Source: Thermoplasmata archaeon (GTDB taxonomy: Archaea > Thermoplasmatota > SW-10-69-26 > JACQPN01 > JAJPHT01). From it: 64,000 bases of DNA. The stretch is taken from the NCBI GenBank assembly GCA_034667685.1, contig JAXDQU010000106.1, positions 1 to 64,000 of the forward strand, given 5' to 3'. Shown in pieces: positions 4,044-63,322 of the stretch; within the stretch, counting starts at the first letter, position 1; the number at the start of each line of letters is the position of its first letter. The position numbers and the translations under genes are program-made. The notes beneath the pieces are model-generated. The model was not told the DNA's origin, searched no databases, and worked only from the letters and a program-made list of their open reading frames with translations.

Positions 4044-4433
4044 TCAGCGCTTCGGCGCCGCAAAGCGTTGCTCCCGTTTCAGCTTCCCATCCTTGCCGTA
4101 GGTGCGCCAGAGCCCGACGCGCTTTCCGGCCAGATATCGCCCTTCGTCGAACAGCTTGCCGGTGCCGCCTTGATATCGTTTCCAGAGGCCGGTCTGCTTG
4201 CCGTCCTCGTCGAACCGGCCGCGCTGGCGCACGACGCCGTTGGCGGCGTACCAGGTCCAGAGCCCGACACTGGTCCCCGTCTCGAAGCGGCCGGAGGCCC
4301 ACGGCTTGCCGTCGCGGTGGTAGAACTTCCACGGGCCGTCGCGCTTGCGGCCGACGTACCGGCCCGCGCTCTTGAGCGTGCCATCCTTGTAACGCTCCTT
4401 GACGATCGGGCCGGGCTTGGCGCGGGCGGGCAC
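4044..4433 (-). CDS. MORN-variant repeat protein (YwqK-like)
   Basis: Repeated G-x-W-x-x-Y-x-x-x-G units; GTG start inferred. Confidence 0.75.
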   Translation of the reverse strand: MPARAKPGPIVKERYKDGTLKSAGRYVGRKRDGPWKFYHRDGKPWASGRFETGTSVGLWTWYAANGVVRQRGRFDEDGKQTGLWKRYQGGTGKLFDEGRYLAGKRVGLWRTYGKDGKLKREQRFAAPKR

Positions 4434-4614
4434 GGCGCGGGGAGGCGCGCGGCGGCGCAAAGCCTCTTCCGCGCAGGGGCATTCGGGCCCTCGGCTGGAC
4501 CGGTCAGGGCCTGCGGGACCACCCCGCGTGGGTTGTCGCTCCCGGCTTGGCCACGGGCCCAGCGCCCCAATCCGACGGTCCTATATAGGGCCGGGGAGGG
4601 AGGCAAGACCGACC

Positions 4615-5220
4615 ATGTCCCCCGGGTCCAGCCACCTTGCGGTCGGGAGCCTCTTCGTCCTCGCGGGCGCGGGCAGCCTGGTCGCGGGGCTGGTGCACGC
4701 ATCGTGGCTGCCGGCGTCCTTCCTGACGCTCACGGGCAGCTCGCTGGCGTGCATCGTGGGCTTCGTGCTGCTCCTGGGCGGGCTGCTCATGACGCTCTTC
4801 GCCTTCCAGCGCCACGAGCCGCCGGCCGACGTCGTGCCCGCCGAGGTGGCGTTCGCCTCGCGGATGGTCGTCGCCGACCCGCACGCCGCCGAGCCCGTGC
4901 CGACCCCGGCCCCCCGCCCCCGCGCCGCGCCCGCGCGCGCCCCCGCGCCGGCCCCCGCGCGCGCCAGCGCCCCGCGCCGGCCGCCCGCGGGCGCGACGGC
5001 TGCCGCCGCCTCCGCGGCGCCCGCCCCCGCCGTGGCCCCGACGCCCGGCCTGGACGAGCAGATCCGCGAGCTGACGCGCCGGATCAGCAAGGCGGGCGTC
5101 ATGCTCGCGACGGGCCAGATCAGCCAGCAGGGGTACGCGTCCTACGTCGACGACCTGAAGCGGCAGCGCGGCGCGCTGGAGGCCAAGCGCGTCGAGCAGC
5201 AGATGGGCACCGAGCTCTGA
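4615..5220 (+). CDS. Hypothetical membrane protein (2 TM helices, Pro/Ala linker, short C-terminal helical domain)
   Basis: ATG at 4615 downstream of TATA-like CTATATA at 4581; typical codon usage. Confidence 0.6.
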   Translation: MSPGSSHLAVGSLFVLAGAGSLVAGLVHASWLPASFLTLTGSSLACIVGFVLLLGGLLMTLFAFQRHEPPADVVPAEVAFASRMVVADPHAAEPVPTPAPRPRAAPARAPAPAPARASAPRRPPAGATAAAASAAPAPAVAPTPGLDEQIRELTRRISKAGVMLATGQISQQGYASYVDDLKRQRGALEAKRVEQQMGTEL

Positions 5221-5270
5221 GCATTCCTTTTTATCTGAGCGTGGCTTCCGCCGCCTCAGGTGGAACCCCG

Positions 5271-6551: not shown

Positions 6552-6552
6552 C

Positions 6553-6942
6553 ATGGAGAACAACCCCCACTCGATCGCCGACGCCGCCAAGCAGCTCCGG
6601 GACGCCGCCAGCGAGATGGCGCAGAAGGTCGCCGAAGCCGCCAGCGCGGAGATGAAGATGGTCGCCGAGAAGGCGGCCGAGGCCGCCCGCGTCGCGGAGC
6701 AGAAGGCCGAGGTCCGGGTCCGCGCGGCCGCGGCCAACGCGGCGGAGAAGGTCGCGAAGAGGGTCGCGCCGAAGCCCGCCCCGAAGGCCAAGAAGGCCAA
6801 GCGCGCCGCGCCCGCGAAGAAGGCGAAGAAGGCCGCCAAGAAGACCGGCAAGAAGACCGCCAGGAAGGCGACGAAGAAGCCCGCGAGGAAGGCGGGGAAG
6901 AAGAGCGCGAAGAAGGCCAGGAAGGCCGGCAAGAGGCGCTGA
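6553..6942 (+). CDS. Small Lys/Ala-rich basic protein (histone H1-like low-complexity tail)
   Basis: AKKAKKAAKK-type repeats; sits tightly between sucC and sucD. Confidence 0.7.
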   Translation: MENNPHSIADAAKQLRDAASEMAQKVAEAASAEMKMVAEKAAEAARVAEQKAEVRVRAAAANAAEKVAKRVAPKPAPKAKKAKRAAPAKKAKKAAKKTGKKTARKATKKPARKAGKKSAKKARKAGKRR

Positions 6943-6946
6943 TATC

Positions 6947-11639: not shown

Positions 11640-12023
11640 ATGCGCGGGGCGGTGCGCGCGGCGGGCATCCTCTCCCTCGCGGCGGGGCTGGTCCACGCCG
11701 ACCTGGGCCCGGCGCACTTCCGCGTCTGGTGGGGGTACGGCCTCTTCTTCGCCGTCGCGGCGCTCGCGCAGATCGTGCTGGGCCTCGCGCTCCTGATGGA
11801 CGCGCTGCCGCGCATGCGCCCCGTCTACGTCGCCGGCATCGTGGGCAACCTCGCGCTCATCGGGCTCTACGTCCTCACGCGCACCGCGGGCATCCCGCTC
11901 CTCGGTCCGGCGGCGGGCGGCGTCGAGCGCGTGGCGCCGCTCGACGTCGTCACGGAGGCCATGCAGGCGATCACGATCGCGCTGCTCGCGCGCGGCCTCG
12001 TCACATCGAGCGCAGGCGCTTGA
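11640..12023 (+). CDS. Hypothetical membrane protein
   Basis: 4 TM segments, AGLVH..HF..WWGYG.FF motif. Confidence 0.65.
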   Translation: MRGAVRAAGILSLAAGLVHADLGPAHFRVWWGYGLFFAVAALAQIVLGLALLMDALPRMRPVYVAGIVGNLALIGLYVLTRTAGIPLLGPAAGGVERVAPLDVVTEAMQAITIALLARGLVTSSAGA

Positions 12024-12906
12024 TGCGCTCGTCCAGCGGCGGGTGGGTGCTCCACGGGCTGGAGCTGGAGAGGTGGTTCCACGGGTTGGCGATGTAGAGC
12101 GCCGCGGCCGTGCGCGAGCCCTTCGGGTCGTCGGGCAGGTCGGCCTTGATCTTCTCCAGCGCGTCGGCGAGGCCCTGCGGGTTGCGCGTGAGCTTCGCCC
12201 CGGTCGCGTCGGCGAGGTACTCGCGCCTCCGTGATAGCATGAGGTAGACGAGGCGCGAGAGGATGGGCGCCAGGATCAGCGCCGCGATCGCGACGACGAT
12301 CAGGACCGGGCTCCCCTTGCGGTCGCGCCCGCGTCCTCCGCCGAACCACAGGAGGCGCGTGCCGATCTCGGCGAGCATGGCGATGGCGCCCACCACGCCC
12401 ACCGTGACGGTGGCGAGGCGCACGTCGTAGTTGGCGACGTGGCTCATCTCGTGGCCGATGACGCCTTCGAGCTCCTCCTGCGAGAGCTGCTCGATCGCGC
12501 CCCGCGTGACGCAGATGACGCTCTTCTGGGGTGCCAGGCCCGTGGCGAAGGCGTTGATGTCGCGCGAGTCCTGGATGTACACCTGCGGCACGGGGAGGCC
12601 CGCGGCGATCGCCATCTCCTCGACCTTGTACTGGAGGAGCTTCTCCTCGCGCACGTTGGGGTTCGCCGGGCGCGCCTCGGCCGCGAGCAGCACGGTGCTC
12701 GTGGCGTTGGCGTAGGCGATGCCCACGTAGGCGAGCGCGACCACGAGCGCGATCGCGCCCGTGACGACGGGCTCTGCGCCCAGGACCGCGCCCACGGCGA
12801 AGACGACGCCGAAGAGGATCAGCAGCATCAGCGCCTCGACGAGCACGGTCTGGCGCTTGTTGCGCGCGATCTGCTCGGCGAAGCTGACCTTGGCGGGCTC
12901 GCTCAT
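12001..12906 (-). CDS. htpX: M48 zinc metalloprotease HtpX
   Basis: NAFATG, HEMSH, SRRREYLAD, STHPP; overlaps lemA stop. Confidence 0.92.
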   Translation of the reverse strand: MSEPAKVSFAEQIARNKRQTVLVEALMLLILFGVVFAVGAVLGAEPVVTGAIALVVALAYVGIAYANATSTVLLAAEARPANPNVREEKLLQYKVEEMAIAAGLPVPQVYIQDSRDINAFATGLAPQKSVICVTRGAIEQLSQEELEGVIGHEMSHVANYDVRLATVTVGVVGAIAMLAEIGTRLLWFGGGRGRDRKGSPVLIVVAIAALILAPILSRLVYLMLSRRREYLADATGAKLTRNPQGLADALEKIKADLPDDPKGSRTAAALYIANPWNHLSSSSPWSTHPPLDERIKRLRSM

Positions 12907-14455: not shown

Positions 14456-15376
14456 CTAGAGCGTTTCCAGCGCGCTCGCCGGGTCGAGCTTGCGCGCCGC
14501 CACGGCGTCCAGGGCCGCCTGATAGCGCGGGCTCGACTGGACCGCGCGTTCGGCCCGCTCCCGCGCCGCCACGATTATCTCGGCCGCGGCCTGAGCACGG
14601 CGCTTCGCATCCAGCCCACCATGCGTGGAGAGCCAGGCGCGGTGGCGCGCGACCTCCTCGGCGAGCGCCTCGATCCCAACGCCCGTGGCGGCGACGGTGC
14701 GCAGGACGCGGGGCGACCAGCCGCTCGCCGCGTGCTCCAGCCACGCCTCCAGCTCCGCGACGGTGCGGTCGGCGCCCTCGCGGTCGCCCTTGTTCACGAC
14801 GAAGACGTCGCCGATCTCCATGAGGCCGGCCTTGATGTTCTGGATCTCGTCGCCCAGGCCCGGCACCGCGACGACGAGCACGGTGTCGGCCAGGCGCACG
14901 ATGTCGATCTCGGCCTGGCCCACGCCCACCGTCTCCACGAGCACCACGTCCTTGCCGGAGGCGTCGAGGATGCGCGCGGCGTCGGCGGCGGCGCGCGAGA
15001 GCCCGCCCAGGTGCCCGCGCGTCGCCATGCTGCGGATGAAGACCTTCGGGTCGGTGGCGCGCTTCTCCATGCGGACACGGTCGCCCAGGAGCGCGCCGCC
15101 CGTGAAGGGGCTCGACGGATCGACCGCGACGACGCCCACGGTGCGCCCCGCCTTGCGGTGGTGCTCGATGAGCCGGTCCACGAGCGTGCTCTTGCCGCTG
15201 CCCGGCGGGCCCGTGACGCCCACGACCTGGGCGCGACCCGTGCGCGGGTACAGCGCCGCCATGAGCGGACGCGCCTCCGGGTCGCCCGACTCGACGAGGC
15301 TGATGGCGCGGGCGATGGCGCGGCGGTCGCCCTCCAGCACGCGCTTGGCGAGCGCGGCGCCCTCGCGGGGGAGCAT
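14456..15376 (-). CDS. meaB: Methylmalonyl-CoA mutase-associated GTPase MeaB
   Basis: GPPGSGKST, VDPSSPFTGGALLGDRVRM, ETVGVGQ, NKGD. Confidence 0.95.
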   Translation of the reverse strand: MLPREGAALAKRVLEGDRRAIARAISLVESGDPEARPLMAALYPRTGRAQVVGVTGPPGSGKSTLVDRLIEHHRKAGRTVGVVAVDPSSPFTGGALLGDRVRMEKRATDPKVFIRSMATRGHLGGLSRAAADAARILDASGKDVVLVETVGVGQAEIDIVRLADTVLVVAVPGLGDEIQNIKAGLMEIGDVFVVNKGDREGADRTVAELEAWLEHAASGWSPRVLRTVAATGVGIEALAEEVARHRAWLSTHGGLDAKRRAQAAAEIIVAARERAERAVQSSPRYQAALDAVAARKLDPASALETL

Positions 15377-16206: not shown

Positions 16207-16352
16207 GTCGCGCCCGTGCTTGGCGCTTGCGCGCGGCGGCGGAGCAACGCGAGCAGCGCCACGCCCAGCACGAAGGCCGCGAGCGGCGCGGCGGGGGCGT
16301 CCTTCGTCGTCGACGACCTCGTTGCGCACGCGGCTCGCGGAGCCGTGATAGC

Positions 16353-19732: not shown

Positions 19733-20455
19733 ATGCCTGAGGACTATGCAGCCTTCCTGAAGCGCGCACGCAGCAAGGTGCCCGAGAAGGTGGGCACGGG
19801 CGAGCGCTTCGTGATGCCGCAGATGGACGTCCTCCAGGAGGGCAAGCTCACCATCGTGCGCAACATGGCCGAGGTGCTCGACCGGCTCAACCGTCCCAGC
19901 GACCACCTCGTCCCGATCCTCCTGCGCGAGGTCGGCACGGCGGGCAGCTACGAGGACGGCCGCCTCACGCTCCAGGCCAAGGTCAGCCCGGACAGCCTCC
20001 AGACGCGCCTCGAGAAGTACGTCGAGACGTACGTCATCTGCGGCGAGTGCGGCCGCCCCGACACGCACCTCATGAAGGAGGAGCGCACGACCATCCTGAA
20101 GTGCGACGCGTGCGGCGCGCACCGGCCGATCAAGGGCGCGGCCAAGAAGGCCGCCGTCAAGCCCGAGGAGGCCGTCGTCGAGGGCAAGACCTACGAGGTC
20201 ATGATCGAGGACAACGGCAAGCGCGGCGACGGCATCGCGCGGCGCGACCGCTACACCATCTTCGTGAAGGGCGCGCAGAAGGGCAACGTCTACCACGTCA
20301 AGATCGAGAAGGTCACGGGCACGCTCGCGTTCGGCGAGATCGTCAGCGCCGCGGCCGCGACGCCCAACACGGCCGGCCCCAAGACCGCCGCGCAGGCCGC
20401 CGCGGGCAACAAGCCTGCTTCGGGCGCGAAGCCCGGCGGCCCCGCCAAGAAGTGA
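19733..20455 (+). CDS. eif2b: Translation initiation factor aIF-2 beta with C-terminal TRAM domain
   Basis: ERFVMP, YVICGECGRPDT, CDACGA zinc ribbon; TRAM GKRGDGIA..IFV; CTTTATC box upstream. Confidence 0.93.
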   Translation: MPEDYAAFLKRARSKVPEKVGTGERFVMPQMDVLQEGKLTIVRNMAEVLDRLNRPSDHLVPILLREVGTAGSYEDGRLTLQAKVSPDSLQTRLEKYVETYVICGECGRPDTHLMKEERTTILKCDACGAHRPIKGAAKKAAVKPEEAVVEGKTYEVMIEDNGKRGDGIARRDRYTIFVKGAQKGNVYHVKIEKVTGTLAFGEIVSAAAATPNTAGPKTAAQAAAGNKPASGAKPGGPAKK

Positions 20456-20548
20456 TATCGCCGGAGGGCGGGGGGCGGGTCCCCGGCGCCCCCCGTTGGC
20501 CGAACCCTTTTTACGTGTCCCGAGGCTCCGCGCCCCAGAGGACCGCCC

Positions 20549-48691: not shown

Positions 48692-49006
48692 CTCATTGGG
48701 TCGTCGTCGTCTCGTGCAGACACCCCTGCGCGACATGGGGTCACGCGGCCGCGCGTCCTTGGAGCTTGTGGAGCATTGCTTTCTTTCATCGAGAGGAACA
48801 GACAACCCCCCACGTGCTTTTGGAAACAATTCGTTATGTTAAGCTTCCTCGGTGAGCAGGTATCTAGCCTGCTCCCACGAGGCTGCATGGCACGATATAC
48901 TTCCGCAAGTCACAACGATGGTCTAGTCTGTTACTTGCATGATGATATCCTTCGTGCCCCGGGCGACAGCTCGCCCGAGTGTGGAGGAATCCAATTGGCC
49001 AAAGAC

Positions 49007-50868: not shown

Positions 50869-52518
50869 ATGGACCCCGGACGCAAGCCCCGTATCCCGCG
50901 TGCATTTGCCATCGCGTGCGCCGCGCTCGTCGCCCTGACGAGCCTCGGCGCCGCCTCGCTCGCGCAATCCGCGGGGCCCGACATTGTCGTCGCGCGGGGC
51001 GTGACGCTCACGCTCGATGCGCCCGCGCACCTGCGCCATCTCCTCGTCCAGGGCGAGCTGGTCCTCGACCTGCCGCCCCATGCGGTCCTCGCTGCCGATG
51101 ACGTCCGCGTCGCCTCGTCCGGCGCGATCCGCGGCGCCAACGGCGCGGACGCGCCCGCCGCGCGCGGCCTCGACGCGTCTGGCCTGCCAGGCGCGCCCGG
51201 CGCGAGCGTCGCGCTGCGCGTCGGCTCGCTGGTGGTCGAGCGCGGCGGCGCGATCGTTGCCGGCTCGGGCGGGCGCGGCGGCGACGCCCTCGGATCCGGC
51301 CTCCTCCGCGGCGGCCCCGGAGGCGCCGGCGGCTCGCTCCTCCTCGACGCGGCGCAGAGCAGTGTCGAGGGGCGCCTCGCGGCGGGCTCGGGTGGCGAAG
51401 GCGGCGACGCGATCGCGCTGCGCGCGCCGGCGACCGCGCAGGGCGGACGCGGCGGCGACACGGGCGTCGCGCTGCTCGACGGCGCGCCGATCCCCATGAC
51501 GAATGATATCATGCCGTCCCCGCGCTTCGCGGCCGGGTGCAGCTCGCCGCCTCTCGGCGCGCCCGGCGCGGCCGTCGTCGGCGGCGCGGGCGGATACGCC
51601 TGCATGCGCGTCGAGAGCGAGGCCGGCGCGCCCGGCCCCGCGTGCGGCCCCGGCACGGAAGGCGGGCCGGCCCTCGCCCTCGCCATCGGCGGCGACGGCG
51701 GCGACGGCCTCGCGCCTGGCGCCCCCGGAGGCGCCGGCGGCAGCGCGTTCGCGCAGGCCGACGCCGGGCAAGGCGGCGCGGGCGCGGACTGCATCACGGG
51801 CAGCGGCGGCGCCGGAGGCGTTGGCGGCCGGGCCCTCGCCCAGGCGCGCGCGGGCCAGGGCGGCCAGGGAGGCGTGGGCGCGGCGGGCGGCGCCGGCGGA
51901 CTCGCCTTCGCGCAGGCGCGCGGCGGACCCGGTGGCGCAGGCGGGTCGGGCGCGCTCGCGGGAGGCGCTGGCGGCGTCGGCGGCGCGGCGGACGCCTCGG
52001 CGCTTGGCGGCGCGGGCGGCGCGGGCGGAGCGCTCGGCGCGCCCGCAGGCGGAGGCGGCCCCGGCCGCGCGGACGCTTCGGGCGGCCACGGCGGCGCGGG
52101 AGGCCGCGGCCAGACGGCGGGCGGGAATGGCGGCGAAGGAGGCGCAACCTCCGCCAACGCCACCGGAGGCGGCGGCGGGGCCGGGGATTCCGGCGGAGGC
52201 GGCGGACCGGGAATCACCAGCATCGACGCGCGCGGCGGCGACGGCGGCGCGCCCGATGGCCTGGGCGGAGCGGGAGGCGCGTGGCGCTCCATCGCCACCG
52301 GAGGCGCGGGCGGCGACGGGTGCGACGGCGGCCAGGGCGCGAACGGCGGCTTCGCGGTGGCCGGCACGCCGGGCCCAGGCGTCTCGGGCGGATCGAACAC
52401 GGAAGGTGGCACGGCTCCCCCGGGCGCCGGCAGCGCCACCGCGACGCAAGGCCGGGCCGGAGCCGCGGGCGGGCCGGGCTGCATGTTGTTAGCGATCGAC
52501 TGGAGGACACCAAGATGA
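50869..52518 (+). CDS. Secreted Gly-rich surface protein 2
   Basis: AGGAG RBS; same architecture as protein 1. Confidence 0.8.
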   Translation: MDPGRKPRIPRAFAIACAALVALTSLGAASLAQSAGPDIVVARGVTLTLDAPAHLRHLLVQGELVLDLPPHAVLAADDVRVASSGAIRGANGADAPAARGLDASGLPGAPGASVALRVGSLVVERGGAIVAGSGGRGGDALGSGLLRGGPGGAGGSLLLDAAQSSVEGRLAAGSGGEGGDAIALRAPATAQGGRGGDTGVALLDGAPIPMTNDIMPSPRFAAGCSSPPLGAPGAAVVGGAGGYACMRVESEAGAPGPACGPGTEGGPALALAIGGDGGDGLAPGAPGGAGGSAFAQADAGQGGAGADCITGSGGAGGVGGRALAQARAGQGGQGGVGAAGGAGGLAFAQARGGPGGAGGSGALAGGAGGVGGAADASALGGAGGAGGALGAPAGGGGPGRADASGGHGGAGGRGQTAGGNGGEGGATSANATGGGGGAGDSGGGGGPGITSIDARGGDGGAPDGLGGAGGAWRSIATGGAGGDGCDGGQGANGGFAVAGTPGPGVSGGSNTEGGTAPPGAGSATATQGRAGAAGGPGCMLLAIDWRTPR

Positions 52519-54332
52519 TATCAGGACACGGAGCCCGAAGGACAAACCGATCGACCCGGCTCGCTGCGACCTGCGCGGTCGCGTTGGGCCTCGTTCTCCT
52601 GACGCCGATCGTGGGCAGCTTCGGGACCAATGCGCCCGGGATGGACGCGAGCGTCCCTGAGGGCGCGGTGACGACGCTGCAAGGCGCGCGCTCGTTGCAC
52701 GACATCGACGTGCTGGGCACGCTCGTGCTCGACCTCGCCCCCGGCCAGACCCTCGACGCGGTCCATGTGCACGTGGGCGGCCACGGCGCGATCGTGGGTG
52801 CCGCAGGCGCGGCGGGCGCAGACGCGCAGGGACGCGACGCGCAGGGCGCCGCAGGCGCGGAGGGCGGCCGCGTGGTGATCCAGGCGGACTCCATCACGCT
52901 CGACGAAGGAAGCCTCGTGCAGGGCGGCCGTGGCGGTGAGGGCGGCGCGGCGACTGGCTACGGCGTCGTGGTCGGCGGCAACGGAGGCACGGGCGGCTTC
53001 GTGCGCGTGACCGCGCGGGAGCGCAGCGTGCACGGCCTCATCCTGCCCGGCTCGGGCGGCGACGGCGGCGCGGCCGTCGAGATCGTCAACGCGTCGCAGG
53101 TCGTCGGCATGAGCGTCAAGGCCGTCGGCGGGCGCGGGGGCGACACGGGCCGCGCGTGGCTCAATGGCGTCCTGGTCCCGGCCAAGCTGCCCGACCTGCC
53201 GAAGCCGCCGCTTGTCTCGATCAATCCGCCGCTCCAGTGCCCCGGCGGCGCGGCGCTCATCATCGGCTCGCCCGGGTTGCCCGAGGGCGGCCACGGCGGG
53301 ACCGCGTGCATGCTCAGCATCGGCGCCCCGGGCGCCAACGGGTCGGGCTGCGCTGGCTCGACGGGCGACGCGGGCTCGACGGGAGACGCGGCAGCGGCTG
53401 CGGCGGTCGGCGGACGCGGCGGCGACGCCGCGCTTCCGGGCGTGCCCGGCGGCGGGGGCGGCGACGCGTGGGCGATCGCGCGCGGCGGCAACGGCGGCGA
53501 CGGAAACAGCTGCCTGACCGGCGGCGCGGGTGGCAACGGTGGCGGCGCACAAGCGGAGGCCGTCGGAGGCGAGGGCGGCATGGGCGGGACGCTCGGCGCC
53601 CTGGGCGGCTTGGGCGGCTGCGGCTACGCAGAGGCCAAGGGAGGGCTCGGCGGCACGGGAGGCTCGGGCTCGACCACCGGAGGCGCTGGCGGCTCGGGCG
53701 GCAGCGCGTCCGCCACGACGGACGGCGGCGACGGCGGGCCCGGCGGCCTGCCCAACGGCCTGGCCGGCGACGGCGGCTGCACGTTCACCTTCGGGGCGGG
53801 CGGCAACGGAGGCCGCGGTGGGGCCTGCACCAGCATGTCCCTCTGCACGGCCGGCACGGGCGGCAGCGCGGGCCAGCCCACCGACGCCAAGTCGCGCGGC
53901 GGACGCGGTGGCGACGGCGGGCGCGGAGGGAATGGCGGCGCGGCGCACAGCGAGGTTGACCCGCGCGGCGGGGACGGCGGCGTGCCCAATGGCCTGGGCG
54001 GGCTGGGCGGCAGCGTGAGCGTCCTGGCGGCGGGCGGCGACGGCGGGAACAGCCTCACCTGGCCCGAAGGGGGACTGGGCGGCGAGGCGAGCACGCTGAT
54101 CCCCCAGGGGAGCCTCGATGGCGGCCTGGGCGGCGACGGCACCCCCGCGCTGGGCGGGGTGGTTCTCGCCGACCAATCCAAGCGGGGCGAGGATGGGGTC
54201 GGGACCGGTGGGCCTGGGCCCTCCGTTGGCGGCGCACCCACGCTCTCATCCTGGGGCGCGGCGCTCATGGCCGCCGCGCTGCTTGGCGTGGGCGTCGCCT
54301 TCACGCGGCCCCGAAGGCCCGATCAGCCCTGA
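52515..54332 (+). CDS. Secreted Gly-rich surface protein 3 with IPTL-CTERM-like sorting signal
   Basis: ATGA overlap; C-terminus APTLSSWGAALMAAALLGVGVAFTRPRR. Confidence 0.82.
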   Translation: MISGHGARRTNRSTRLAATCAVALGLVLLTPIVGSFGTNAPGMDASVPEGAVTTLQGARSLHDIDVLGTLVLDLAPGQTLDAVHVHVGGHGAIVGAAGAAGADAQGRDAQGAAGAEGGRVVIQADSITLDEGSLVQGGRGGEGGAATGYGVVVGGNGGTGGFVRVTARERSVHGLILPGSGGDGGAAVEIVNASQVVGMSVKAVGGRGGDTGRAWLNGVLVPAKLPDLPKPPLVSINPPLQCPGGAALIIGSPGLPEGGHGGTACMLSIGAPGANGSGCAGSTGDAGSTGDAAAAAAVGGRGGDAALPGVPGGGGGDAWAIARGGNGGDGNSCLTGGAGGNGGGAQAEAVGGEGGMGGTLGALGGLGGCGYAEAKGGLGGTGGSGSTTGGAGGSGGSASATTDGGDGGPGGLPNGLAGDGGCTFTFGAGGNGGRGGACTSMSLCTAGTGGSAGQPTDAKSRGGRGGDGGRGGNGGAAHSEVDPRGGDGGVPNGLGGLGGSVSVLAAGGDGGNSLTWPEGGLGGEASTLIPQGSLDGGLGGDGTPALGGVVLADQSKRGEDGVGTGGPGPSVGGAPTLSSWGAALMAAALLGVGVAFTRPRRPDQP

Positions 54333-54782: not shown

Positions 54783-56291
54783 TTATAAGGCAGACGGGTC
54801 CGCGAGGGGTGGGAGCGCCTCCAGCGCGCCGCGCAGCGCCGGCCCTTCCGCCAGCGTGCCCACCGTGAGCACGTTGCCCATCTTGTGGACGGTCGGGTCG
54901 GTGACGCATTTCTCGTTGCAGACGTCGACGAAGACGGCGTAGGGGCGGCCCTGGGGGTCGATGGCGGCGTCGATGAAGTCGTCCATCCCGCCGCAGCGCG
55001 TCTTGCCGCACACGCCGCGCGCGAGGGGGTTGGCCGGGTCGTTGGCGGTGACGGTGGTGGCGACGGGGTGCGCGTCCTTCGCGTCGGTCATGACGGTGAG
55101 GTAGCCGTTCCACGAGGCGTTGGCCCACTCGGGCGGGTCCTGCGCGGGGCTGGCGATGTCGGTGACCGTGCCCTCGGGGCCGGTCTGCTTGCCCGCGTAC
55201 CCGCCGGGGATCGTCGTGGCGACGTAGGCGAACACGAGGCGGCCGTCGGCGCCCGCGGCGAGGGCGGGGAACGCGGCGGCGGTGACCTCGGGGGGCGAGA
55301 CGACGAGGGCGGGCGCCCACGTGACACCGTGGTCCTTGCTCCAGGCGTAGGTGGGCAGGCCCTTGTCGCTGATCCATCCCGCGTACACGGTGCCGTTGTC
55401 GTCGACGGCGAGGTTCACGTCGTGCACGACGCCGCTGTTGATCACGGCGGAGCCCTTCGCGATGACGTGCGAGGTCCACGTGAGGCCGTCGTCCTCGGTG
55501 ACGCCGATCGTGGGGTTGCGGTTGCAGCCGCCGTGCGCGAGGAAGACGCGCCCGTCCTTGTCCGTGACCGGGTGGCCCAGCGAGTCGCCCGGGCAGTCGG
55601 TGGGGTCGGTCGTCTGCGGGAAGACCGTCACGACGGGGCCGAACGTGTAGCCGCCGTTGAGCGAGGTGGCGCACTCGGTCGTGACGCCGGTGTTCGTGCA
55701 CGAGTAGACGACATTGGGATAGAGCGGGCTCACGGGGAGCATGCGCGGCTTGGCGGCGACCATGCTCTGGTGGTCCGCGATGGGGACACCCGCGCCCACG
55801 CCGCAGCCCACGGGGCTCGTGGTCCACGTGGCGCCCGCGTCGTCCGTCCACGAGAGGATCGCGCACTCGGCGTCGTTCTCGTTCTTGTAGACGCGCCCCG
55901 TCGTCGGGTCGAGGTACATGTACGGGTCGAGCGTCTGCGGCGGCGCGTGCTGGCCCGTGGGCAGCGTGGGCCCCACGTCCTTCCACGTCAGGCCGTGGTC
56001 CTCGGAGCGCATGATGGTGGGCTCGCCAGCCTGGAACGCCTCGGCGAAGATGCGCCCCTTGCTATCAATGCCCAGCGTGGGCTCGCCGCCCGAGGCGCCG
56101 GTGGAGAGCTGCAGGCCGCGGGCGGGCAGGGGCGCGGCGGCCGGGATCGCGCCGCCGCCGAGGACGTGGACCTCGCCCGCGAGCGAGGCGGGGAGCGTCG
56201 AGGCGCTCTGGACGGGCTGGGGGACGGCGCCGGGCGCGGCGCAGCCGGCGAGCAGGACGGCCAAGGCGAGGAAGACGAGCGCGAGACGCAT
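54783..56291 (-). CDS. BNR/Asp-box (sialidase-like beta-propeller) lipoprotein
   Basis: LAGC lipobox; repeated S/T-x-D-x-G-x-T-W Asp boxes. Confidence 0.85.
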   Translation of the reverse strand: MRLALVFLALAVLLAGCAAPGAVPQPVQSASTLPASLAGEVHVLGGGAIPAAAPLPARGLQLSTGASGGEPTLGIDSKGRIFAEAFQAGEPTIMRSEDHGLTWKDVGPTLPTGQHAPPQTLDPYMYLDPTTGRVYKNENDAECAILSWTDDAGATWTTSPVGCGVGAGVPIADHQSMVAAKPRMLPVSPLYPNVVYSCTNTGVTTECATSLNGGYTFGPVVTVFPQTTDPTDCPGDSLGHPVTDKDGRVFLAHGGCNRNPTIGVTEDDGLTWTSHVIAKGSAVINSGVVHDVNLAVDDNGTVYAGWISDKGLPTYAWSKDHGVTWAPALVVSPPEVTAAAFPALAAGADGRLVFAYVATTIPGGYAGKQTGPEGTVTDIASPAQDPPEWANASWNGYLTVMTDAKDAHPVATTVTANDPANPLARGVCGKTRCGGMDDFIDAAIDPQGRPYAVFVDVCNEKCVTDPTVHKMGNVLTVGTLAEGPALRGALEALPPLADPSAL

Positions 56292-56853: not shown

Positions 56854-57678
56854 TCACGCGATGGGGTGCGAACTGACGTCGTTGACGGCCTTCTTGAGCC
56901 GCTTCAGGTCGAGTCTCTTCCTTGCGTGCGCATCGCGCTGCCAGGCGTCCAACGAATCGATGACCGTGTGCGCCTCGACGAGGTAGCATTCCGCGGCCTT
57001 CCACGTCAGGAGCTGATCCCCCTCCCTCCACGTGTGGACGAGCCAGATGCCGTTCTCGTCGTAATCGCGCGCCCACATCGAGTGCCCGCCGCCCGAGTTG
57101 GGCAGCCAGTCGCCGATCGCGGGCTGCCCGACGGGAATGTCCCAGGCCTTTGGGGGCGAGATGGACTCGAACGCCTTCGGGAGCGCAAGGCACACCGCGA
57201 TCCCATGGGCGCCGCTCGAGGCGATCGCGCGGCGAACCTCCTGCTGGTCGAGGTGGTTGACCCTGACGTACGCGTCGATGGTCAGCGCGCGTCCGCTGGC
57301 GTCGCGGATCGACAGCTCGGGGCGGCGCCAACGGTCGAGCGCGTCGGTCTCGTACGCGCCCTCGTCGTTGCCCCCGTAGAGGTCCGCGCACATCTTCTCG
57401 AACACGCGAAGCGGCTCGTCCTCGGCAATCTGCGGGACGTGCCCCGTCTCGAGCCGCTCCATGCGCAGCATGGCGACGGCCTGCTTCGCGATCGTGCAAT
57501 CGTTGTGCTCTGTGTTGCCGTAGGCATGCCTGGCGAAAGGCGCCCTGCGGTTCCAGAAGCCCGTCGCCTTGGGAGGCTTCACGGTCCCCCGCGCGAAGGC
57601 TCCGAACATCAGGGCTTTCGCCGACGTCTTCGGGGGCAGGCATCCGGTTCTCCTGTTCGCGAGTGGTGTTCGCATCAT
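56854..57678 (-). CDS. Papain-like (C1-related) cysteine peptidase
   Basis: GN...NDCTIA (Cys), GGHSM (His), VHTW; no signal peptide; ATGA overlap with upstream gene. Confidence 0.7.
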   Translation of the reverse strand: MMRTPLANRRTGCLPPKTSAKALMFGAFARGTVKPPKATGFWNRRAPFARHAYGNTEHNDCTIAKQAVAMLRMERLETGHVPQIAEDEPLRVFEKMCADLYGGNDEGAYETDALDRWRRPELSIRDASGRALTIDAYVRVNHLDQQEVRRAIASSGAHGIAVCLALPKAFESISPPKAWDIPVGQPAIGDWLPNSGGGHSMWARDYDENGIWLVHTWREGDQLLTWKAAECYLVEAHTVIDSLDAWQRDAHARKRLDLKRLKKAVNDVSSHPIA

Positions 57679-58400
57679 GGTTCTTCCTTCAGCGTGATCT
57701 CGGGTCGAGCGGGCGCGCGCGGTGGCGGCGCAACGGGCCCTGGGACGCGGAGCGCGCCGCGCGTGGCGTCTTGCCAAGAACGCAGCACGTCGGGCGCGAT
57801 GGGCTCGGGCAGGATGGGCGCGAGGTCCTTCGCGAGCCGCGCGGGATCCGCGGCGAGGAAACCGGCAGGGTCCTTGATCGCGGTCTTTGCGATCGCTTCC
57901 AGGAGCGCCGGAGGGATCGTCGGTAGCGCGAGGATCGCCGCCTTGTCGAGCGCGCGATCGAGGCTCGCGCCAAGCCTGAGGTTCGCGAGCGCTGCGCGCC
58001 CCGCGGCGGTCTGCGAGATGCGCATCAGGTCGTCCACCGAGAAGACGCGATGCGCGGCAAGCTTCTCAATCGCCTGATGCGGGAGCCCAAGCGTCGAGAG
58101 CGGCTGCGGCGCGCTCGGAAGCGGCGCGCGTGGCGCGTCTTGCGAGGGCCGCACGCGCAGGCGAAGCGTCGCGCCGCCCGGCGCCGCGTCGTTCGAGAGG
58201 CTCACGAGGACTTGGCCCAGCTCGTCGAGACGCGCGCGGACGGGCAGCGTCAACTCCAGGTCGTCCAGGATGTAACAGCCTGACGCTCTCGGATGCCGCG
58301 CCAGCTCCTCGTGGATGCCCATCGCGGCGGAGGCGACGGTTTCGCCCAGCTCGTGCAGGACGACCTCGGAAGGGAGCGACGAGAGAGGCTCAACCGGCAC
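57675..58400 (-). CDS. Hypothetical protein: helix + beta-hairpin N-domain (Trypco/DUF2589-like) and two HhH-like repeats (DUF4332-like)
   Basis: LHELGETVASAA..EL, LDDLELTLPV; LGL...IEKLAAHRVFSVDDL and LPTI....EAIAKTAIKDPAGF; GGAGGTGA RBS before GTG 58400. Confidence 0.55.
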   Translation of the reverse strand: MPVEPLSSLPSEVVLHELGETVASAAMGIHEELARHPRASGCYILDDLELTLPVRARLDELGQVLVSLSNDAAPGGATLRLRVRPSQDAPRAPLPSAPQPLSTLGLPHQAIEKLAAHRVFSVDDLMRISQTAAGRAALANLRLGASLDRALDKAAILALPTIPPALLEAIAKTAIKDPAGFLAADPARLAKDLAPILPEPIAPDVLRSWQDATRGALRVPGPVAPPPRAPARPEITLKEEP

Positions 58401-58482
58401 GCCCGTCACCTCCCGACGCCAGAAAGGCAAGGCCGGAATGAGACGACCGCGGCTGCGCGAGAACCGCCGCCATCGTCGCGCC

Positions 58483-59625
58483 TCAGATGTTGATCCCGAC
58501 GTCGGCGTTCACGTAGCCGAAGGACGCGTGGACGACCGTCGCGGCGGGAGGCTTCGTCTTGTCGAATTGCGCTCCTTCGCGGGACACCGTGATGACCACC
58601 TTGCCCGCGCTGTCCGTCTTGTCGGTTGTGGACTTGTACGTCCAGCTCAGGAAGGGGTCGCTCAGCGTGATGTCGATGGACTTGCCCGCGAGCGCCGTGC
58701 TGTCCACCTTCAGGAGCGTGAGGGTGACGTCCACGGCGCGCCCCGTGGGGTCGGGGGGCGACCCTCCAGGGGGCGTAGCGGGGACCACGTCCACGCGGGG
58801 TCCCGCGGTCAGCTTCAGCGAGGGGCCCTTCTGCACGATGACCGGCTTAGGAATCTGCATGTCGGGGCGCGGCTCCAACGTCGCGTCGAGATGCATGGAG
58901 CCCGCGGCCTGATCCGTGGACGTGCTCGAATCGCCGGATGCCGCGTAGGAGCCGAAGCTGTAACCGATGCTCCCCGACGCGCCCACGCCGTGCAGGCGGC
59001 TGTACGTGGCGGCCGCGCCCACCGAGAAGCCTTGGCTTTTCCCTTGGACGTTGAACCCGTTGGCGGTGTTGAACTCCGAGACCTTCATGTCGGCCGAGAT
59101 GTGGACGGACTTCCACAAGTAGGCGGGCGGCGTGATGTAGTTGATCAGCGGGAGCTTCATCACAACGGGGTGTCCGTCCACCAGCTGGCCATCGTCGTCG
59201 AGCTTCTGCTCGAAGACCGCGATGACGTCGATCATCTGCTGCGAGAGCGCCGAGGCCGTGACGACGAGGCCTGCGTCGAGCTGGGCCTGCGCTTCCGCGA
59301 CGGCATCGCCAACCTTGCTCACGAGCAGACCGAACGCCGGTCCCCCTCGGGCGAGCTCGTCGGTGATGTCAGCATCCGGAGCGACCACGGGCGTCACGCC
59401 CATCTTCGCTTCGCCGACGTGCAATGCCGTGGGGTGCCCGGTCCCGCCTGCCGTGAGGGCCCCCTGCCGGAGATCGCGAGCGTCCTGCTGCGCGAGGCGG
59501 ATGGCCCGGAGCTGCGCGGCCTGGGCGGCGTCGATGGCTTCCTGAACGTCCTTGGAGATGGGCGCCTTTCGCTGGCTGGCGTTCGACGATTCGTGCTTGC
59601 TCTTCTTGACGTGCGTGAGTGCCAC
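58483..59625 (-). CDS. DUF2589-like protein with long Gly/Ser amphipathic beta-hairpin and C-terminal Ig-like domain
   Basis: FGLLVSKVGDAVAEAQAQLD, KLPLINYI.P, S/G-rich alternating strands, TTDKTDSAGKV Ig-like end; GGAGGT RBS before GTG 59625. Confidence 0.6.
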   Translation of the reverse strand: MALTHVKKSKHESSNASQRKAPISKDVQEAIDAAQAAQLRAIRLAQQDARDLRQGALTAGGTGHPTALHVGEAKMGVTPVVAPDADITDELARGGPAFGLLVSKVGDAVAEAQAQLDAGLVVTASALSQQMIDVIAVFEQKLDDDGQLVDGHPVVMKLPLINYITPPAYLWKSVHISADMKVSEFNTANGFNVQGKSQGFSVGAAATYSRLHGVGASGSIGYSFGSYAASGDSSTSTDQAAGSMHLDATLEPRPDMQIPKPVIVQKGPSLKLTAGPRVDVVPATPPGGSPPDPTGRAVDVTLTLLKVDSTALAGKSIDITLSDPFLSWTYKSTTDKTDSAGKVVITVSREGAQFDKTKPPAATVVHASFGYVNADVGINI

Positions 59626-59811: not shown

Positions 59812-60849
59812 TTACAAGCGCTTCTGCGCGACGAAAAGCTCCGCACCCAGCACGTTGGACCCGGCCGCGCCGCGGATCGTGTTGGACCCGCTCGCGATCC
59901 AGCGCAGGTCTAGCACGTTGTCGGGCCGGATGCGCCCCACGCTCACGGCCATGCCCTTCTCCGCATACACGTCCTTGCGCGGCTGCGGCCGGTCGGGCTC
60001 GCTGCGCACGTGGAGCGGGCGCAGCGGCGCGCTGGGCAGCTTGAGCTTCTGCGGCGCGCCCTGCCACGTCGCCATGACCTCCGCGGCTTCCTCGGGTGTG
60101 GGCTTGCTGCGGAACTGCGCGGTGATCGCGACGGTGTGCCCCTCCTGCACGGGGACGCGGACGCACGTCGCGCTCACGCCGATCTCGGCGAGCTTGACGC
60201 CCTCCGGCGCGACGGCGCCGAGGAACTTGCGCGTCTCCTTCTCCATCTTCTCTTCTTCGCCGCCGATGTGCGGGATCACGTTGTTCATGATCGCCAGCGA
60301 CGGAACGCCAGGATAACCGGCGCCGCTGACGGCCTGGTACGTCGCGAAGAAGACCTTCTCCAGGCCGAACACGTCGTGAAGCGGCTTGAGGCTCATCAGC
60401 GCGGTGATGGTGCTGCAGTTGCCGTTGGTGACGATCTTGCCGCGCGTCTTCTGGCGTTCGACCAGCGCGAGGTGGTCCGGGTTGACCTCGGGCAGGAGGA
60501 GCGGCACGTCGGCGTCCCAGCGGTGGTCGCGGGCGTTGCTGAAGACGTGGATCCCGCGCTCGGCGAGCGAGGTCTCGATCGGCCCTGCCTTGCCTCCGGG
60601 AATGGCGCTGAAGACGAGGTCGACGTCGAGGTCGTCCGCGGGCGTCTTGACGCGCATGTCGCGCACCGATGCCGGCATCGGATCGTCGACGACCCACGTG
60701 GCGGCGTCCTTGTAGAGCTTGCCGGCGCTCCGCTCGGAGGCGACGAGCTCGGTGACGCGGAACCAGGGGTGGTTGTCGAGGAGCATGGCGAATCGCTGGC
60801 CCACCATGCCGGTGGCGCCGAGGATGCCGACTTTCACGGTCTGGGTCAT
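59812..60849 (-). CDS. asd: Aspartate-semialdehyde dehydrogenase (archaeal/fungal type)
   Basis: [42 protein letters not shown]. Confidence 0.95.
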
Positions 60850-62252
60850 GACGGATTCTCCTTGGGCGCCGGGCGTTCGAAGAGGAACTCGTGGTGGATG
60901 GCGCGCACGCAGGCGTCTCGGTCCTTGCGCTTGACGACGAAGTTGAGCGCGATGTCGGACGCGCCCACCGAGATCATCTCGATGTTGACGCCCGCCTTGC
61001 CCACGGCGGTGAAGATCTTGCCGGCGGTGCCCTGCGAGCTGCCGATGCCGCGGCCCACGACGCAGATCAGCGTCATGTCGGTGATGCCCTCGACGCTCTG
61101 GATGGTGCCCTCGCGGATCGACTCCAGCGCCTTGAGGCCGCGGTCGAGGTCCTGCTCCTCGATGAGCAGGGCGAAGCTGGCCTGGCTCGCGGCCATGTTG
61201 TAGACGTTGACCTTGGCCTTGGCGAGCGCGTCGAACACCTTCTGGCCGATGCCCGGCGTGTACGCCATGCCGGGGCCGTAGATCTTCAGGATCGCGAGGC
61301 TGTCCTTGGTGGCCGCGCTGCGCAGCGCGTCGCGGCGCATCGAGGCGACGCCGGTGATCAGGGTGCCCTGGACGTCGGGCTGCTGCGTGTTGCGCACGAG
61401 GATCGGGATGTGGTGGTCCTTGAGCGGCTCGACCGTGCGCGGGTGGAGGACCTTCGCGCCCACACCCGCAAGCTCCGCCGCCTCCTCGTAGGTCATCTCG
61501 GCGATGGGCTGCGCGTCCTTGAGGATGCGCGGGTCGGCGGTGAGGAAGCCGTCGACGTCCTTCCAGACCTCGAGGCGCTGCGCGCGCAGGGCGGCCGCGA
61601 CGATGGCGGCGGCGTAGTCGCTCCCGCCGCGGCCGAAGGTGGTGACGCGGCCCACGGCGTCGCAGCCGAAGAAGCCCGTGAGCACCGGCGTGACGCCTTC
61701 GCGCAGGCGGCCCACGAGCGAGCGTTCGAGGTTGCGCTCGATGGCGCTCATGATGGGCGTCGCGTTGCCGAAGACGCCGTCGGTGAGCATGCCCGCCTCG
61801 TCCGCGTCGAGCGCTTCGGCGGGGACGCCGCGGCTGCGCAGGACGCCCGCGAGCAGGCGCACGCTCATGCGCTCGCCGAACGAGACGGCGAGGTCCTTCG
61901 TCTTGGCCGTGAGCTCCTCGGTGTACGCGATGCCGTAGAGCAGGCGCTCGAAACGTTGCAGCAGCGCGTCCATCTCCTGCGTGACGCGGAGCGTCTCGGG
62001 CTCCGTGGCGCCGGCCTCCTGCAGCGCGCCCAGGTGCTTGCCGAGCATCTCGCGCAGGAAGGGCTCGATCGCCCCCTCGTCGCGCTGCACGCGCGGGAGG
62101 ACGTTGAGGATCGCGTCGGTGACGCCGGCCATCGCGGAGATGACGACGACGCGCTCGGGCGGCGCCTGGCCCACGATGTCGCTGACGCGGACGAGCATCT
62201 TGCCCGACCCGACGCTCGTGCCGCCGAACTTCATCACGATCAATCGTACCAC
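60846..62252 (-). CDS. lysC: Aspartate kinase with two ACT domains
   Basis: [32 protein letters not shown]. Confidence 0.95.
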
Positions 62253-63322
62253 TCCTGGACCTGCGCCATGTAGGCGCGGAACGCCTGGCGGTCGGGCACC
62301 GCGGCCTCCAACGCATCAAGGCTTCGCCGGAGCCGCGCGAGCACCTCCGCGGTGTGCGGATTGAGGCGCTGGATCTCGTGGTAGAGGTCCTTGTTCTCGT
62401 GGGCGACCTCGCGGCTCACGGCGACCTGCTTCTGGAACGTGGGGCCGCCCAGGCCCCGGACCTGCTCGAAGGAAATCGGCTGCGAGGCGAGCGCGTGGCC
62501 GAACGCGAGCGCGACGGCGTGCGGAAGCCCGAGCACGAGCCCCATGTAGCGGTCGTGCTCCTCCAGGCCCATCTCGACGACGTGCGCCGCGGTGTGCGCG
62601 AAGAGGTCGCGCGCCGCGCGCGCCGCCTCCGCGTTCCCGCAGTCGCACACGACGAGGTTGCGCCCCGCGAGCAGGTCGGCGCCCGGGCCCCACATGGGAT
62701 GGAGGCTCGCGACGCGCGTGCCGGAGGCGGCGAGCGCCCGCAGGGCGTCGGCGTGGGGCGCCTTGAGGCTCGCGATGTCCACGACGAGGCCGCGCGTCTT
62801 GCCCTGGAGCGCGCGCAGGGCGTCCGCGGTCGCGCTGGGCGGCGTGGCGAGGAGCACGAGGTCGTAGTCCTTCGCGGCGCTGGCGAAGTCCGGGACATGC
62901 TTGCGCCCGGGCGGCGCGCCGCGCGGGTCGGCGACGGCGACCTCGTGCCCCATGCTCTCGAGGAACTCGACGAACCAGCGCCCCATGTTGCCCGCGCCGC
63001 CCACCACGAGCGCCTTGCCCGCGTGGCCGTCGGCCTTGACGCGGCCGGCGCGGTCCTTCTCCTGCACGCGGAGGCTCTCGCGGATCTCCAGCTTGAGCAG
63101 CTCCTCGGCGACGTTGGGATCGACGCGCAGCGCGCTTGCGGCCTCGCGCACGAGGCGGATGGCCTCGGCCTCCACCACGTAGTTGCGCACGGGCTGGTGC
63201 GCCGCGGCCTTGATATCACCGACACGCCGCGCGAGGTCGAGCCGGCGGGCGGTCATCTCGACGAGGGCGCGGTCGATGGCGCGGATCTCGTCGCGCAGCT
63301 TCGCCAATTCCTCTTCGCTCAG
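62240..63322 (-). CDS. tyrA: Chorismate mutase / prephenate dehydrogenase
   Basis: LRDEIRAID..R CM domain; GGAGNMG, DIASLK, HPMWGP, EHD; apparent CTG start overlapping aroC stop. Confidence 0.88.
   Translation of the reverse strand: MSEEELAKLRDEIRAIDRALVEMTARRLDLARRVGDIKAAAHQPVRNYVVEAEAIRLVREAASALRVDPNVAEELLKLEIRESLRVQEKDRAGRVKADGHAGKALVVGGAGNMGRWFVEFLESMGHEVAVADPRGAPPGRKHVPDFASAAKDYDLVLLATPPSATADALRALQGKTRGLVVDIASLKAPHADALRALAASGTRVASLHPMWGPGADLLAGRNLVVCDCGNAEAARAARDLFAHTAAHVVEMGLEEHDRYMGLVLGLPHAVALAFGHALASQPISFEQVRGLGGPTFQKQVAVSREVAHENKDLYHEIQRLNPHTAEVLARLRRSLDALEAAVPDRQAFRAYMAQVQEWYD

Follow-up and report, generated by a model that had tools for sequence, protein, structure and literature searches.

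The stretch analysed here, called the window throughout, comprises positions 1-64,000 of contig JAXDQU010000106.1 (C106) in assembly GCA_034667685.1, the genome of an uncultured Thermoplasmata archaeon (G000). Scattered through its genes and spacers is a short AT-rich word, TGATAKC (K being G or T), which in its full form is the 8-letter palindrome TGATATCA. We found that TGATATCA is a genus-specific, genome-wide, highly iterated palindrome of this 71% GC archaeon, and that the word is a signal at the level of the DNA, not a codon or peptide effect. Within the window, TGATAKC has 37 strand matches, corresponding to 28 distinct sites, nine of which are the full palindrome. In 100 dinucleotide-preserving shuffles of the window the mean number of matches was 2.25 (standard deviation 1.55, maximum 8), and none of the 100 reached 37. 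Genes were called with a simple, crude codon-usage model, which yielded 3176 genes covering 84% of G000; by these calls, 21 of the 28 sites lie in genes, three straddle gene ends and four lie where no gene was called. The sites are given below, with G001, G002, G003 and G004 denoting the other genomes of the genus, G003 being the nearest relative (R, A or G; S, C or G).

1955-1961, plus strand: TGATAGC, inside the lower-GC open reading frame (ORF) 466-3411 (STAND NTPase)
4171-4177, plus strand: TGATATC, in gene 4044-4433 (minus strand), sense codons CGA TAT CAA
6940-6947, palindrome: TGATATCA, its TGA the stop of gene 6553-6942 and its last A the first base of the ATG at 6947
12232-12238, plus strand: TGATAGC, in gene 12001-12906 (minus strand), sense ATG CTA TCA
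14520-14526, plus strand: TGATAGC, in gene 14456-15376 (minus strand), sense CGC TAT CAG
16346-16352, plus strand: TGATAGC, no called gene
20453-20459, plus strand: TGATATC, its TGA the stop codon of gene 19733-20455
21202-21208, minus strand: GCTATCA as read on the plus strand, in gene 20549-21325 (plus strand), GTG CTA TCA
21835-21841, plus strand: TGATAGC, in gene 21326-22270 (plus strand), CGT GAT AGC AAA
28022-28028, minus strand: GCTATCA, in gene 27030-28157 (plus strand), CTG CTA TCA
29457-29464, palindrome: TGATATCA, between genes 28158-29453 and 29476-30225; G003 has it too
29652-29659, palindrome: TGATATCA, in gene 29476-30225 (plus strand), GTT GAT ATC ACG; relatives have (C/A)AG GAC GTS ACG
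30354-30360, minus strand: GCTATCA, at the start of gene 30352-31062, GTG CTA TCA; G003 has CTG GCC
36769-36775, minus strand: GCTATCA, in the arginine decarboxylase gene 35547-37580, AGC TAT CAC; common to G001 and G004, while G003 and G002 have TCC/(G)TA TAC CAC
37157-37164, palindrome: TGATATCA, in the same arginine decarboxylase gene, CAT GAT ATC AGA; G003 has CAC GAG ATC CGG
38281-38288, palindrome: TGATATCA, in gene 37727-38557, CAT GAT ATC ACG; four relatives have CAG GAC RTC ACS
38916-38922, minus strand: GCTATCA, in gene 38554-39558, ATG CTA TCA; common to G003
40546-40553, palindrome: TGATATCA, in the aromatic amino-acid lyase gene 40079-41674, CAT GAT ATC ACG; common to G003
41596-41602, minus strand: GCTATCA, in the same lyase gene, GTG CTA TCA; relatives have CTC GCK
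45562-45568, plus strand: TGATAGC, in gene 44838-46010 (minus strand), AGC TAT CAT; common to G003 and G002
45970-45976, plus strand: TGATATC, in gene 44838-46010 (minus strand), CGA TAT CAG; G003 has the same word and G004 has TGATAGC
46516-46522, plus strand: TGATAGC, in gene 46273-47559 (minus strand), GTG CTA TCA; G003 has TGATAGC
46906-46912, minus strand: GATATCA as read on the plus strand, in gene 46273-47559 (minus strand), AAT GAT ATC GCG
48943-48949, plus strand: TGATATC, no called gene
51504-51511, palindrome: TGATATCA, in gene 50869-52518, AAT GAT ATC ATG
52516-52523, palindrome: TGATATCA, its TGA the stop codon of gene 50869-52518
56061-56067, minus strand: GCTATCA as read on the plus strand, in gene 54783-56291 (minus strand), ATT GAT AGC AAG
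63211-63218, palindrome: TGATATCA, in gene 62240-63307 (minus strand), GGT GAT ATC AAG

A preliminary description of this DNA had listed 27 of these positions, every one of which matches TGATAKC. It had also stated that the lower-GC genes at 466-3411 and 56854-59625 hold no full-consensus copy. This is right for 56854-59625, which has none, but wrong for ORF 466-3411, because TGATAGC lies inside it at 1955. This ORF, of lower GC, encodes 981 amino acids with a STAND NTPase 5 domain, was missed by the codon-usage gene model, and is probably a recent arrival. The rare-codon spellings that had been quoted (CTA-TCA, CAT-GAT-ATC, AGC-TAT-CAC, CGT-GAT-AGC and CGA-TAT-CAA) are all present, and the word does occur in different frames and on both strands: several codon phases are represented, as are intergenic DNA and stop codons, the TGA at window positions 6940, 20453 and 52516 being itself part of the word.

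The enrichment is present over the whole 3.48 Mb of the G000 assembly (124 contigs, the longest 167 kb; 71.1% GC; 99% complete). Genome-wide expectations were taken from an order-2 Markov model. By this measure TGATATCA occurs at 378 sites where about 2 are expected, an excess of 192-fold. A one-sided variant, TGATAGCA/TGCTATCA, occurs at 329 sites (7.8 expected), and CGATATCA at 164 (14.5 expected). Words with G or T at position 3 are not notably enriched (TGGTATCA 6, TGTTATCA 9), and the double variant TGCTAGCA is found about 0-1 times in genes. The overall consensus is thus TGMTAKCA (M, A or C), in which one half may be TGCT for TGAT, with TGATAKC as its 7-letter core. Consistent with this, the 1899 TATCA pentamers on both strands have G at position -2 in 89% of cases and A or C at position -1 in 93%. 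The maximal-order ratios of 9- and 10-mers are about 1; longer words are no commoner than their parts predict, so the word stops at 8 bases. The core itself occurs at 1278 sites, or about one per 2.7 kb. No contig is significantly richer in the word, and just two of the 124 are poorer.

Two further observations concern word content in G000. GTAGTAG/CTACTAC is over-represented 17-fold and TTGTAGA/TCTACAA 12-fold, both of which may be a Tyr-codon effect. On contig C106 beyond the window, an 83-bp AT-rich spacer at C106:96007-96089 carries the word five times, in full or in part (TGATAG, GCTATCA, TGATAGC, GATAGCA and GCTATCA); it sits upstream of a string of housekeeping genes for a small methyltransferase, Csl4, RpoL and TruD.

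We counted TGATATCA in 31 genomes, the relatives of G000 being incomplete metagenome-assembled genomes (MAGs) that are 72-100% complete. The five genomes of the genus have 378, 111, 141, 210 and 53 copies, against 0-1 for a control word. Four sister genera of the same family have 2-5 copies, and other members of the order or class 0-9. The one-sided variant follows the same pattern, with 72, 229, 151 and 63 copies in the other four genomes of the genus and five in G007, the sole sister genus in which it was counted. Even the pentamer TATCA is almost absent from samples of G007 (72% GC, 30 kb) and G006 (66% GC), two genomes from sister genera. The word is therefore present in five of five genomes of the genus and in none of four sister genera; together with its sparseness in low-GC islands and absence from repeats, described below, this bears out the proposal that it is a host-specific mark. 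Outside the family, G030 (same phylum, 49% GC) has 215 copies of TGATATCA against 17 of the control word, 16 of them in a 110-kb sample; this weaker, roughly 10-fold excess may be an Asp-Ile codon effect. The public sequencing runs listed as containing this DNA are all contigs of soil or rhizosphere metagenomes, with no RNA run among them. In four of these runs, no variant fell at a motif position among 40 of the 394 differences, a result that is uninformative on polymorphism or modification.

Could bias in codons, dipeptides or mutation produce the excess without any reader specific for the sequence? In favour of this is the fact that 292 of the 378 palindromes stand in a single codon phase, xxT GAT ATC Axx, and that the excess in G030 may itself be a codon effect. 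One dominant phase is forced, however, because the other phases hold TGA or the almost unused codon ATA (82 uses). As a null model we shuffled synonymous codons within each of the 3176 genes 100 times, preserving every protein and the codon usage of each gene. The genes contain 301 copies of TGATATCA against a shuffle mean of 4.4 (maximum 13), a 69-fold excess; TGCTATCA is found 235 times (mean 8.2) and TGATAGCA 67 times (mean 1.1). The word is spelled in three codon phases and both orientations, and phases other than the dominant one use the rarest codons. The variant stands as xxG CTA TCA 243 times against 0.8 expected, and individual spellings exceed the null similarly: 200 against 0.4 for xTG CTA TCA, 31 against 7.0 for TGC TAT CAx, and 65 against 0.6 for xxT GAT AGC Axx. 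CTA makes up 0.6% of Leu codons in G000 and TCA 1.1% of Ser codons, and about 40% of all CTA codons stand in G-CTA-TCA. Moreover, the word is not confined to codons. Forty-two copies of TGATATCA lie over start or stop codons, 30 of them on TGA stops, and another 37 are located between genes. For intergenic DNA the counts are 35 exact copies where 1.0 is expected, and 95 copies that are off by one letter where 34.8 are expected. Finally, a sister genus of like GC (G007) lacks the word. Codon shuffles, phase counts and intergenic copies together refute a codon or dipeptide artefact, and an origin as a by-product of any of these biases is hardly credible. The preliminary description had called the word a DNA-level signal, and the phases, strands, stop codons and intergenic copies support it in this. 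Sites are evenly distributed along genes; the 16S rRNA gene of G000 (SSU_rRNA_archaea match, 1498 bits) contains none. This match and the presence of TBP mark the genome as archaeal, and the closest named loci to one gene of the window mostly carry the label Thermoplasmatota, the probable phylum.

We next consider how completely the word fills the places open to it. In protein contexts of the form x-D-I-[A..], the spelling xxT GAT ATC A is used in 292 of 634 (46%). The spelling TGC TAT CA is used in 31 of 33 C-Y-[QH] contexts (94%), and xGC TAT CA in 269 of 472 [SRGC]-Y-[HQ] contexts (57%). Contexts of the form [VLM]-L-S are spelled xTG CTA TCA in 199 of 1081 cases (18%), and x-D-S-x as xxT GAT AGC A in 65 of 489. 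By comparison, x-A-I-x is spelled xxT GCT ATC A in just 4 of 983, and GCT ATC A is not enriched (6 seen, 10.1 under the null). Among Tyr codons, TAT accounts for 54 of 57 where xGA precedes and CA follows, for 269 of 373 where xGC precedes, and mostly for 2-13% elsewhere. In x-D-I-A contexts the word is close to all-or-none, with the preceding T and GAT both present in 292, neither in 229 and one alone in 97.

One rule fits all of these cases. A perfect TGAT is built beside a half that the protein fixes, which may be either ATCA or AGCA. TGCT, the imperfect half, is accepted where it occurs but is never built beside a perfect half. We infer from this a reader with two-fold symmetry that recognises double-stranded DNA, each half contacting TGAT, and that needs a site with at most about one defect per half. 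Two defects in one half would then leave a path without a favourable gradient. A and C share an exocyclic amino group in the major groove, so that A or C at position 3 would suit a hydrogen-bond acceptor contact, or the target of an amino-methyltransferase.

Along the genome, the spacing of the sites is near exponential (coefficient of variation 1.0), with a deficit below 100 bp, where 19 spacings are seen and 46 expected. In easy contexts, occupancy is 64-70% at any distance between 100 and 3200 bp from the nearest other site, and 64% overall; this constancy implies that sites behave independently of one another. Where local GC is higher the word is denser (0.17 per kb at 60-65% GC, 0.44 per kb at 74-76% GC), a trend opposite to the prediction from base composition. 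On contigs C118 and C42, islands of 63-67% GC contain the longest runs without a site, 14-23 kb in length. The 38 kb of repeated DNA contain none of the 1278 sites, where 14 would be expected. Altogether, the word fills about half or more of its easiest contexts, turns over fast (see below) and is absent from young DNA. The longest word-poor stretches, C118:1-23561, C118:35937-50405 and C42:24864-62636, all of 63-67% GC, are probably recently acquired elements. A role as a promoter element was rejected: TGATA/TATCA is nearly flat over the 100 bases upstream of 1799 start codons, and most sites are intragenic. The same alignment of starts has an AT-rich peak (39-46% AT against a background of 32%) at 35 to 26 bases upstream, which suggests TATA boxes at the distance typical of leaderless mRNAs.

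These patterns bear on a second rival, that the word is a tag for DNA uptake or transfer, so that conspecific DNA carrying it is preferentially imported or recombined. In favour of this, the word is specific to the genus, is enriched in unique DNA of long residence and is missing from islands and repeats; the scarcity of close pairs fits as well. Passages of a recent paper propose that the highly iterated palindrome of cyanobacteria, HIP1, is itself an uptake sequence (Rodriguez-Cruz et al. 2026, PMC13756078). If one tag per fragment suffices, though, pressure should relax near an existing site, and occupancy is unaffected by a site 100-3200 bp away. DprA (PF02481) was found in 0 of 9 genomes and TraG/VirD4 (PF12696) likewise in 0 of 9, in a search that did not include archaeal import systems such as Ced. 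Known uptake sequences are asymmetric and longer, and we know of none in archaea. Taken together, these points make an uptake tag very unlikely.

We then asked whether the sites are old. Thirteen window sites could be aligned to congeners, of which seven are common to at least one congener and six are private to G000. Private sites have been accompanied by changes of amino acid: Q to H at 38281, E to D at 37157, K/Q-D-V to V-D-I at 29652, and A to S at both 30354 and 41596. On a larger scale, we compared G000 with 400 kb of one relative, G003, of which 283 kb aligned at 79.4% identity; gain and loss are unpolarised genome-wide in this comparison. Sixty-three G000 sites fell in the alignment: 11 are identical in G003, three are off by one letter and 49 are off by two to six. 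At unshared sites the two genomes differ at 3.25 of 8 letters, compared with 1.73 per 8 in the flanking DNA; most of these changes affect positions 1, 4, 5 and 8, and both transitions and transversions occur. AT-rich control 8-mers are identical in 37-42% of cases, so the 11 of 63 makes the G000 sites less conserved than controls (P = 5e-5). Seen from the other side, 11 of 22 G003 sites are shared with G000, about equal to the 46-47% of controls. No repeat in G000 carries the word, so intragenomic repeats gave no polarised changes. As far as aligned sequences can tell, these data point to fast, lineage-specific gain instead of a set of old, conserved sites.

The preliminary description had called the word a selected signal. 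Its over-representation stands, but selection does not follow from these comparisons, as the sites are not better conserved than comparable AT-rich words and most are lineage-specific, a pattern that continual replenishment would explain no less well than purifying selection. A third explanation nevertheless holds that the sites are binding or methylation sites kept by natural selection, for an abundant, genus-specific dimeric protein for which more sites are better for the cell. Candidates would be a nucleoid-associated or chromosome-organising protein, a strand-discrimination or repair signal, or a "self" tag in defence. Both the palindromic form and the way the half-sites behave are in keeping with a protein that binds DNA as a dimer. 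The word is spread evenly over contigs (none significantly enriched), its absence from repeats and islands is as a self tag would have it, and changes of amino acid have been accepted to spell it. According to passages of PMC5861425, HIP1 sites are conserved and recur periodically (10-90 kb along the chromosome), from which selection and a part in nucleoid structure are deduced. Opposed to this are the lack of conservation above control words, most sites being lineage-specific, and the independence of occupancy from neighbour distance between 100 bp and 3.2 kb, which is unlike a need for spaced sites. The benefit of each one among some 1300 sites would also have to outweigh rare codons and altered amino acids. 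No candidate regulator was found among 20 small proteins scanned beside intergenic copies, and no methyltransferase family among those searched is limited to the genus. On balance we regard selection on individual sites as possible but somewhat unlikely.

The explanation that we favour, with a probability of roughly 45%, is that a bias in repair or gene conversion, linked to the reader, spreads the word. A symmetric reader would recognise the word as double-stranded DNA, and each change that takes a near-match closer to the word would be favoured wherever the protein tolerates it, most likely because a bias tied to the reader acts on the repair of mismatches or heteroduplexes (gene conversion). 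Sites would then build up singly, independently of their neighbours; long-resident DNA would become saturated, and young, mobile or repeated DNA would not. This would be molecular drive of the kind Elhai proposed for HIP1, as opposed to organism-level selection on each of about 1300 sites. We prefer a repair or conversion bias because saturation is independent of neighbours, because conservation is not above that of controls, and because costly spellings have been accepted at more than 1000 places. A more ambitious version, which we think unlikely, is an undescribed sequence-directed "writing" system in which a symmetric reader of TGATATCA biases repair or recombination so as to rewrite resident DNA progressively, rare codons and altered amino acids notwithstanding, giving it a barcode against mobile or incoming DNA. 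If this were true, HIP1 would here have its first archaeal and AT-rich counterpart, and the trait would be young enough (genus level, fast turnover) for its gene to be found by comparing about 10 genomes.

Several points weigh against a repair or conversion bias. Where a site is not shared with G003, transversions occur alongside transitions (for example G>T 12 and 8, C>A 11 and 6, at positions 1, 4, 5 and 8), so a simple, T:G-specific very-short-patch mechanism is not enough. Intergenic near-matches have been converted less than coding ones, and intergenic words off by two letters are undepleted (603 seen, 589 expected); pure mutational drive does not obviously predict this lower intergenic conversion. 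For HIP1 itself, passages of Xu et al. 2018 (PMC5861425) argue for selection over biased repair, and uptake has been proposed in the paper cited above. Last, the search for a reader or repair enzyme yielded none: no family searched (methyltransferase, Vsr, DprA, TraG) has a distribution limited to the genus.

The details of this search are as follows. We searched seven Pfam methyltransferase families (PF02086, PF01555, PF00145, PF02384, PF06634, PF07669 and PF05063), and none was present in the genus and absent outside it, as judged from incomplete MAGs and with the control for PF05063 giving no match anywhere. The D12-class, type I/IIG, Eco57I and MT-A70 classes do not fit a genus-only pattern. 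G000 has two clear DNA methyltransferases, an orphan N6_N4 and a C5 enzyme, and both have orthologues of 58-73% identity in sister genera that lack the word; the orphan N6_N4 gene (C106:108965-109963) has housekeeping neighbours. CTAG palindromes are strongly avoided in G000 (TCCTAGGA 0 against 28.9 expected, GCTAGC 0.14-fold, CCTAGG 0.20-fold); this N6_N4 enzyme, which is family-wide, could presumably be a CTAG methylase like the haloarchaeal one.

Other candidates for the reader or for repair were rejected. Vsr (PF03852) scores above the cutoff just in G003 and G002 and below it in G004, with none in G000 or G001. A C5 methyltransferase gene with an adjoining Vsr gene is found at G003:C8:39295-40792, G003:C27:116672-118609 and G002:C307:1051-2583, and G000 has no such pair. 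The whole family, not this genus alone, has NucS and a weak MutS-like gene; the Vsr and NucS/MutS results, too, count against biased repair. The DUF1156/DUF499/SNF2 island was dismissed as the source of the reader because DUF1156 occurs in G000 alone among nine genomes of the family. The genes of this low-GC island, C118:30028-41170, are for a DUF499 ATPase, a protein of 473 aa, a methyltransferase of the DUF1156 family (1055 aa) and a 1134-aa SNF2 helicase carrying a NOV_C domain, with a DDE transposase about 2 kb past them. The island looks like a predicted restriction-like defence system. A paralogue of TBP was rejected as well, since its tandem duplication occurs in G000 alone: the tandem genes at G000:C8:82749-83822 hold four TBP repeats, and G003, G001, G007, G006 and G008 have one TBP gene each. 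Regarding an autoregulated regulator that might be encoded beside intergenic copies, the 20 small neighbouring proteins include no transcription-factor family, and the sole DNA-binding match among them is a PDCD5-like dsDNA_bind protein; the genes next to intergenic copies are ordinary ones.

How does the word compare with known systems? Chi-type signals are asymmetric words oriented with the direction of replication. Here the commonest form is a perfect palindrome, and the variant stands in both orientations to genes (76 against 2.3 expected and 243 against 0.8). Vsr, acting with Dcm at CCWGG in E. coli, is an example of a sequence-specific repair bias that enriches a short palindrome site by site. 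Our case differs in that Vsr is absent from G000, changes are towards A/T and include transversions, and the enrichment is far above that of CCWGG. The DNA uptake sequences (DUS) of Neisseria and the uptake signal sequences (USS) of Pasteurellaceae are asymmetric, 9-12 letters long and linked to competence machinery. The likeness here is that a short word is spread over the core genome of one lineage, is tolerated in genes and is under-represented in foreign DNA, and that accumulation of DUS and USS is thought to be molecular drive. It ends with the form of TGATATCA, an 8-letter palindrome without extension, with the 0 of 9 genomes for both DprA and TraG, and with the pressure that is not relaxed near an existing site.

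HIP1 is the closest known case, as the preliminary description had suggested by analogy; the readers it had proposed alongside (uptake machinery, a methyltransferase, a segregation protein) did not emerge from our searches. Both words are 8-letter palindromes found two orders of magnitude above expectation (192-fold for TGATATCA), lie in and between genes independently of the peptide encoded, are lineage-specific, and have one-letter deviants that are patterned, not random. Passages of Elhai 2015 (PMC4390886) describe HIP1 (GCGATCGC) and alternate cyanobacterial palindromes as octamers over-represented 15- to 300-fold, propose a model of methyl-directed repair, and report a word-specific methyltransferase where the word is abundant. 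There are also clear differences. TGATATCA is AT-rich in a 71% GC genome, against both composition and codon bias; it is archaeal, and limited to one genus among those sampled instead of spanning a phylum; no cognate methyltransferase was found for it among the families searched; and TGATAKC occurs about once per 2.7 kb, compared with about once per gene for HIP1. Its sites turn over quickly, in contrast to HIP1 sites, which passages of PMC5861425 report as conserved beyond expectation.

We found no paper on an iterated palindrome in archaea, or on TGATATCA as such a word, in a literature search that supplementary files lay outside; among the matches listed, the string TGATATCA occurs in primers or unrelated contexts. 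To our knowledge, no functional explanation has emerged for HIP1-type palindromes in the three decades and more since their first description, in part because HIP1 is ancient and almost all of its phylum has it, leaving nothing with which it could be correlated. The archaeal word is young, being present in five of five genomes of the genus and none of four sister genera, and its gene should therefore be findable by phylogenetic profiling. As it runs against GC and codon bias, its background is near zero, and its fine structure (A or C at one position, the half-site building rule, the all-or-none states, the independence from neighbours) constrains what the reader can be. Since islands and repeats lack it, the word is usable as a barcode that separates resident from recently acquired DNA in MAGs. 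What is new here in relation to HIP1, then, is that the octamer is AT-rich in a genus of GC-rich archaea, that it has a one-sided M/K variant, and that its distribution is narrow.

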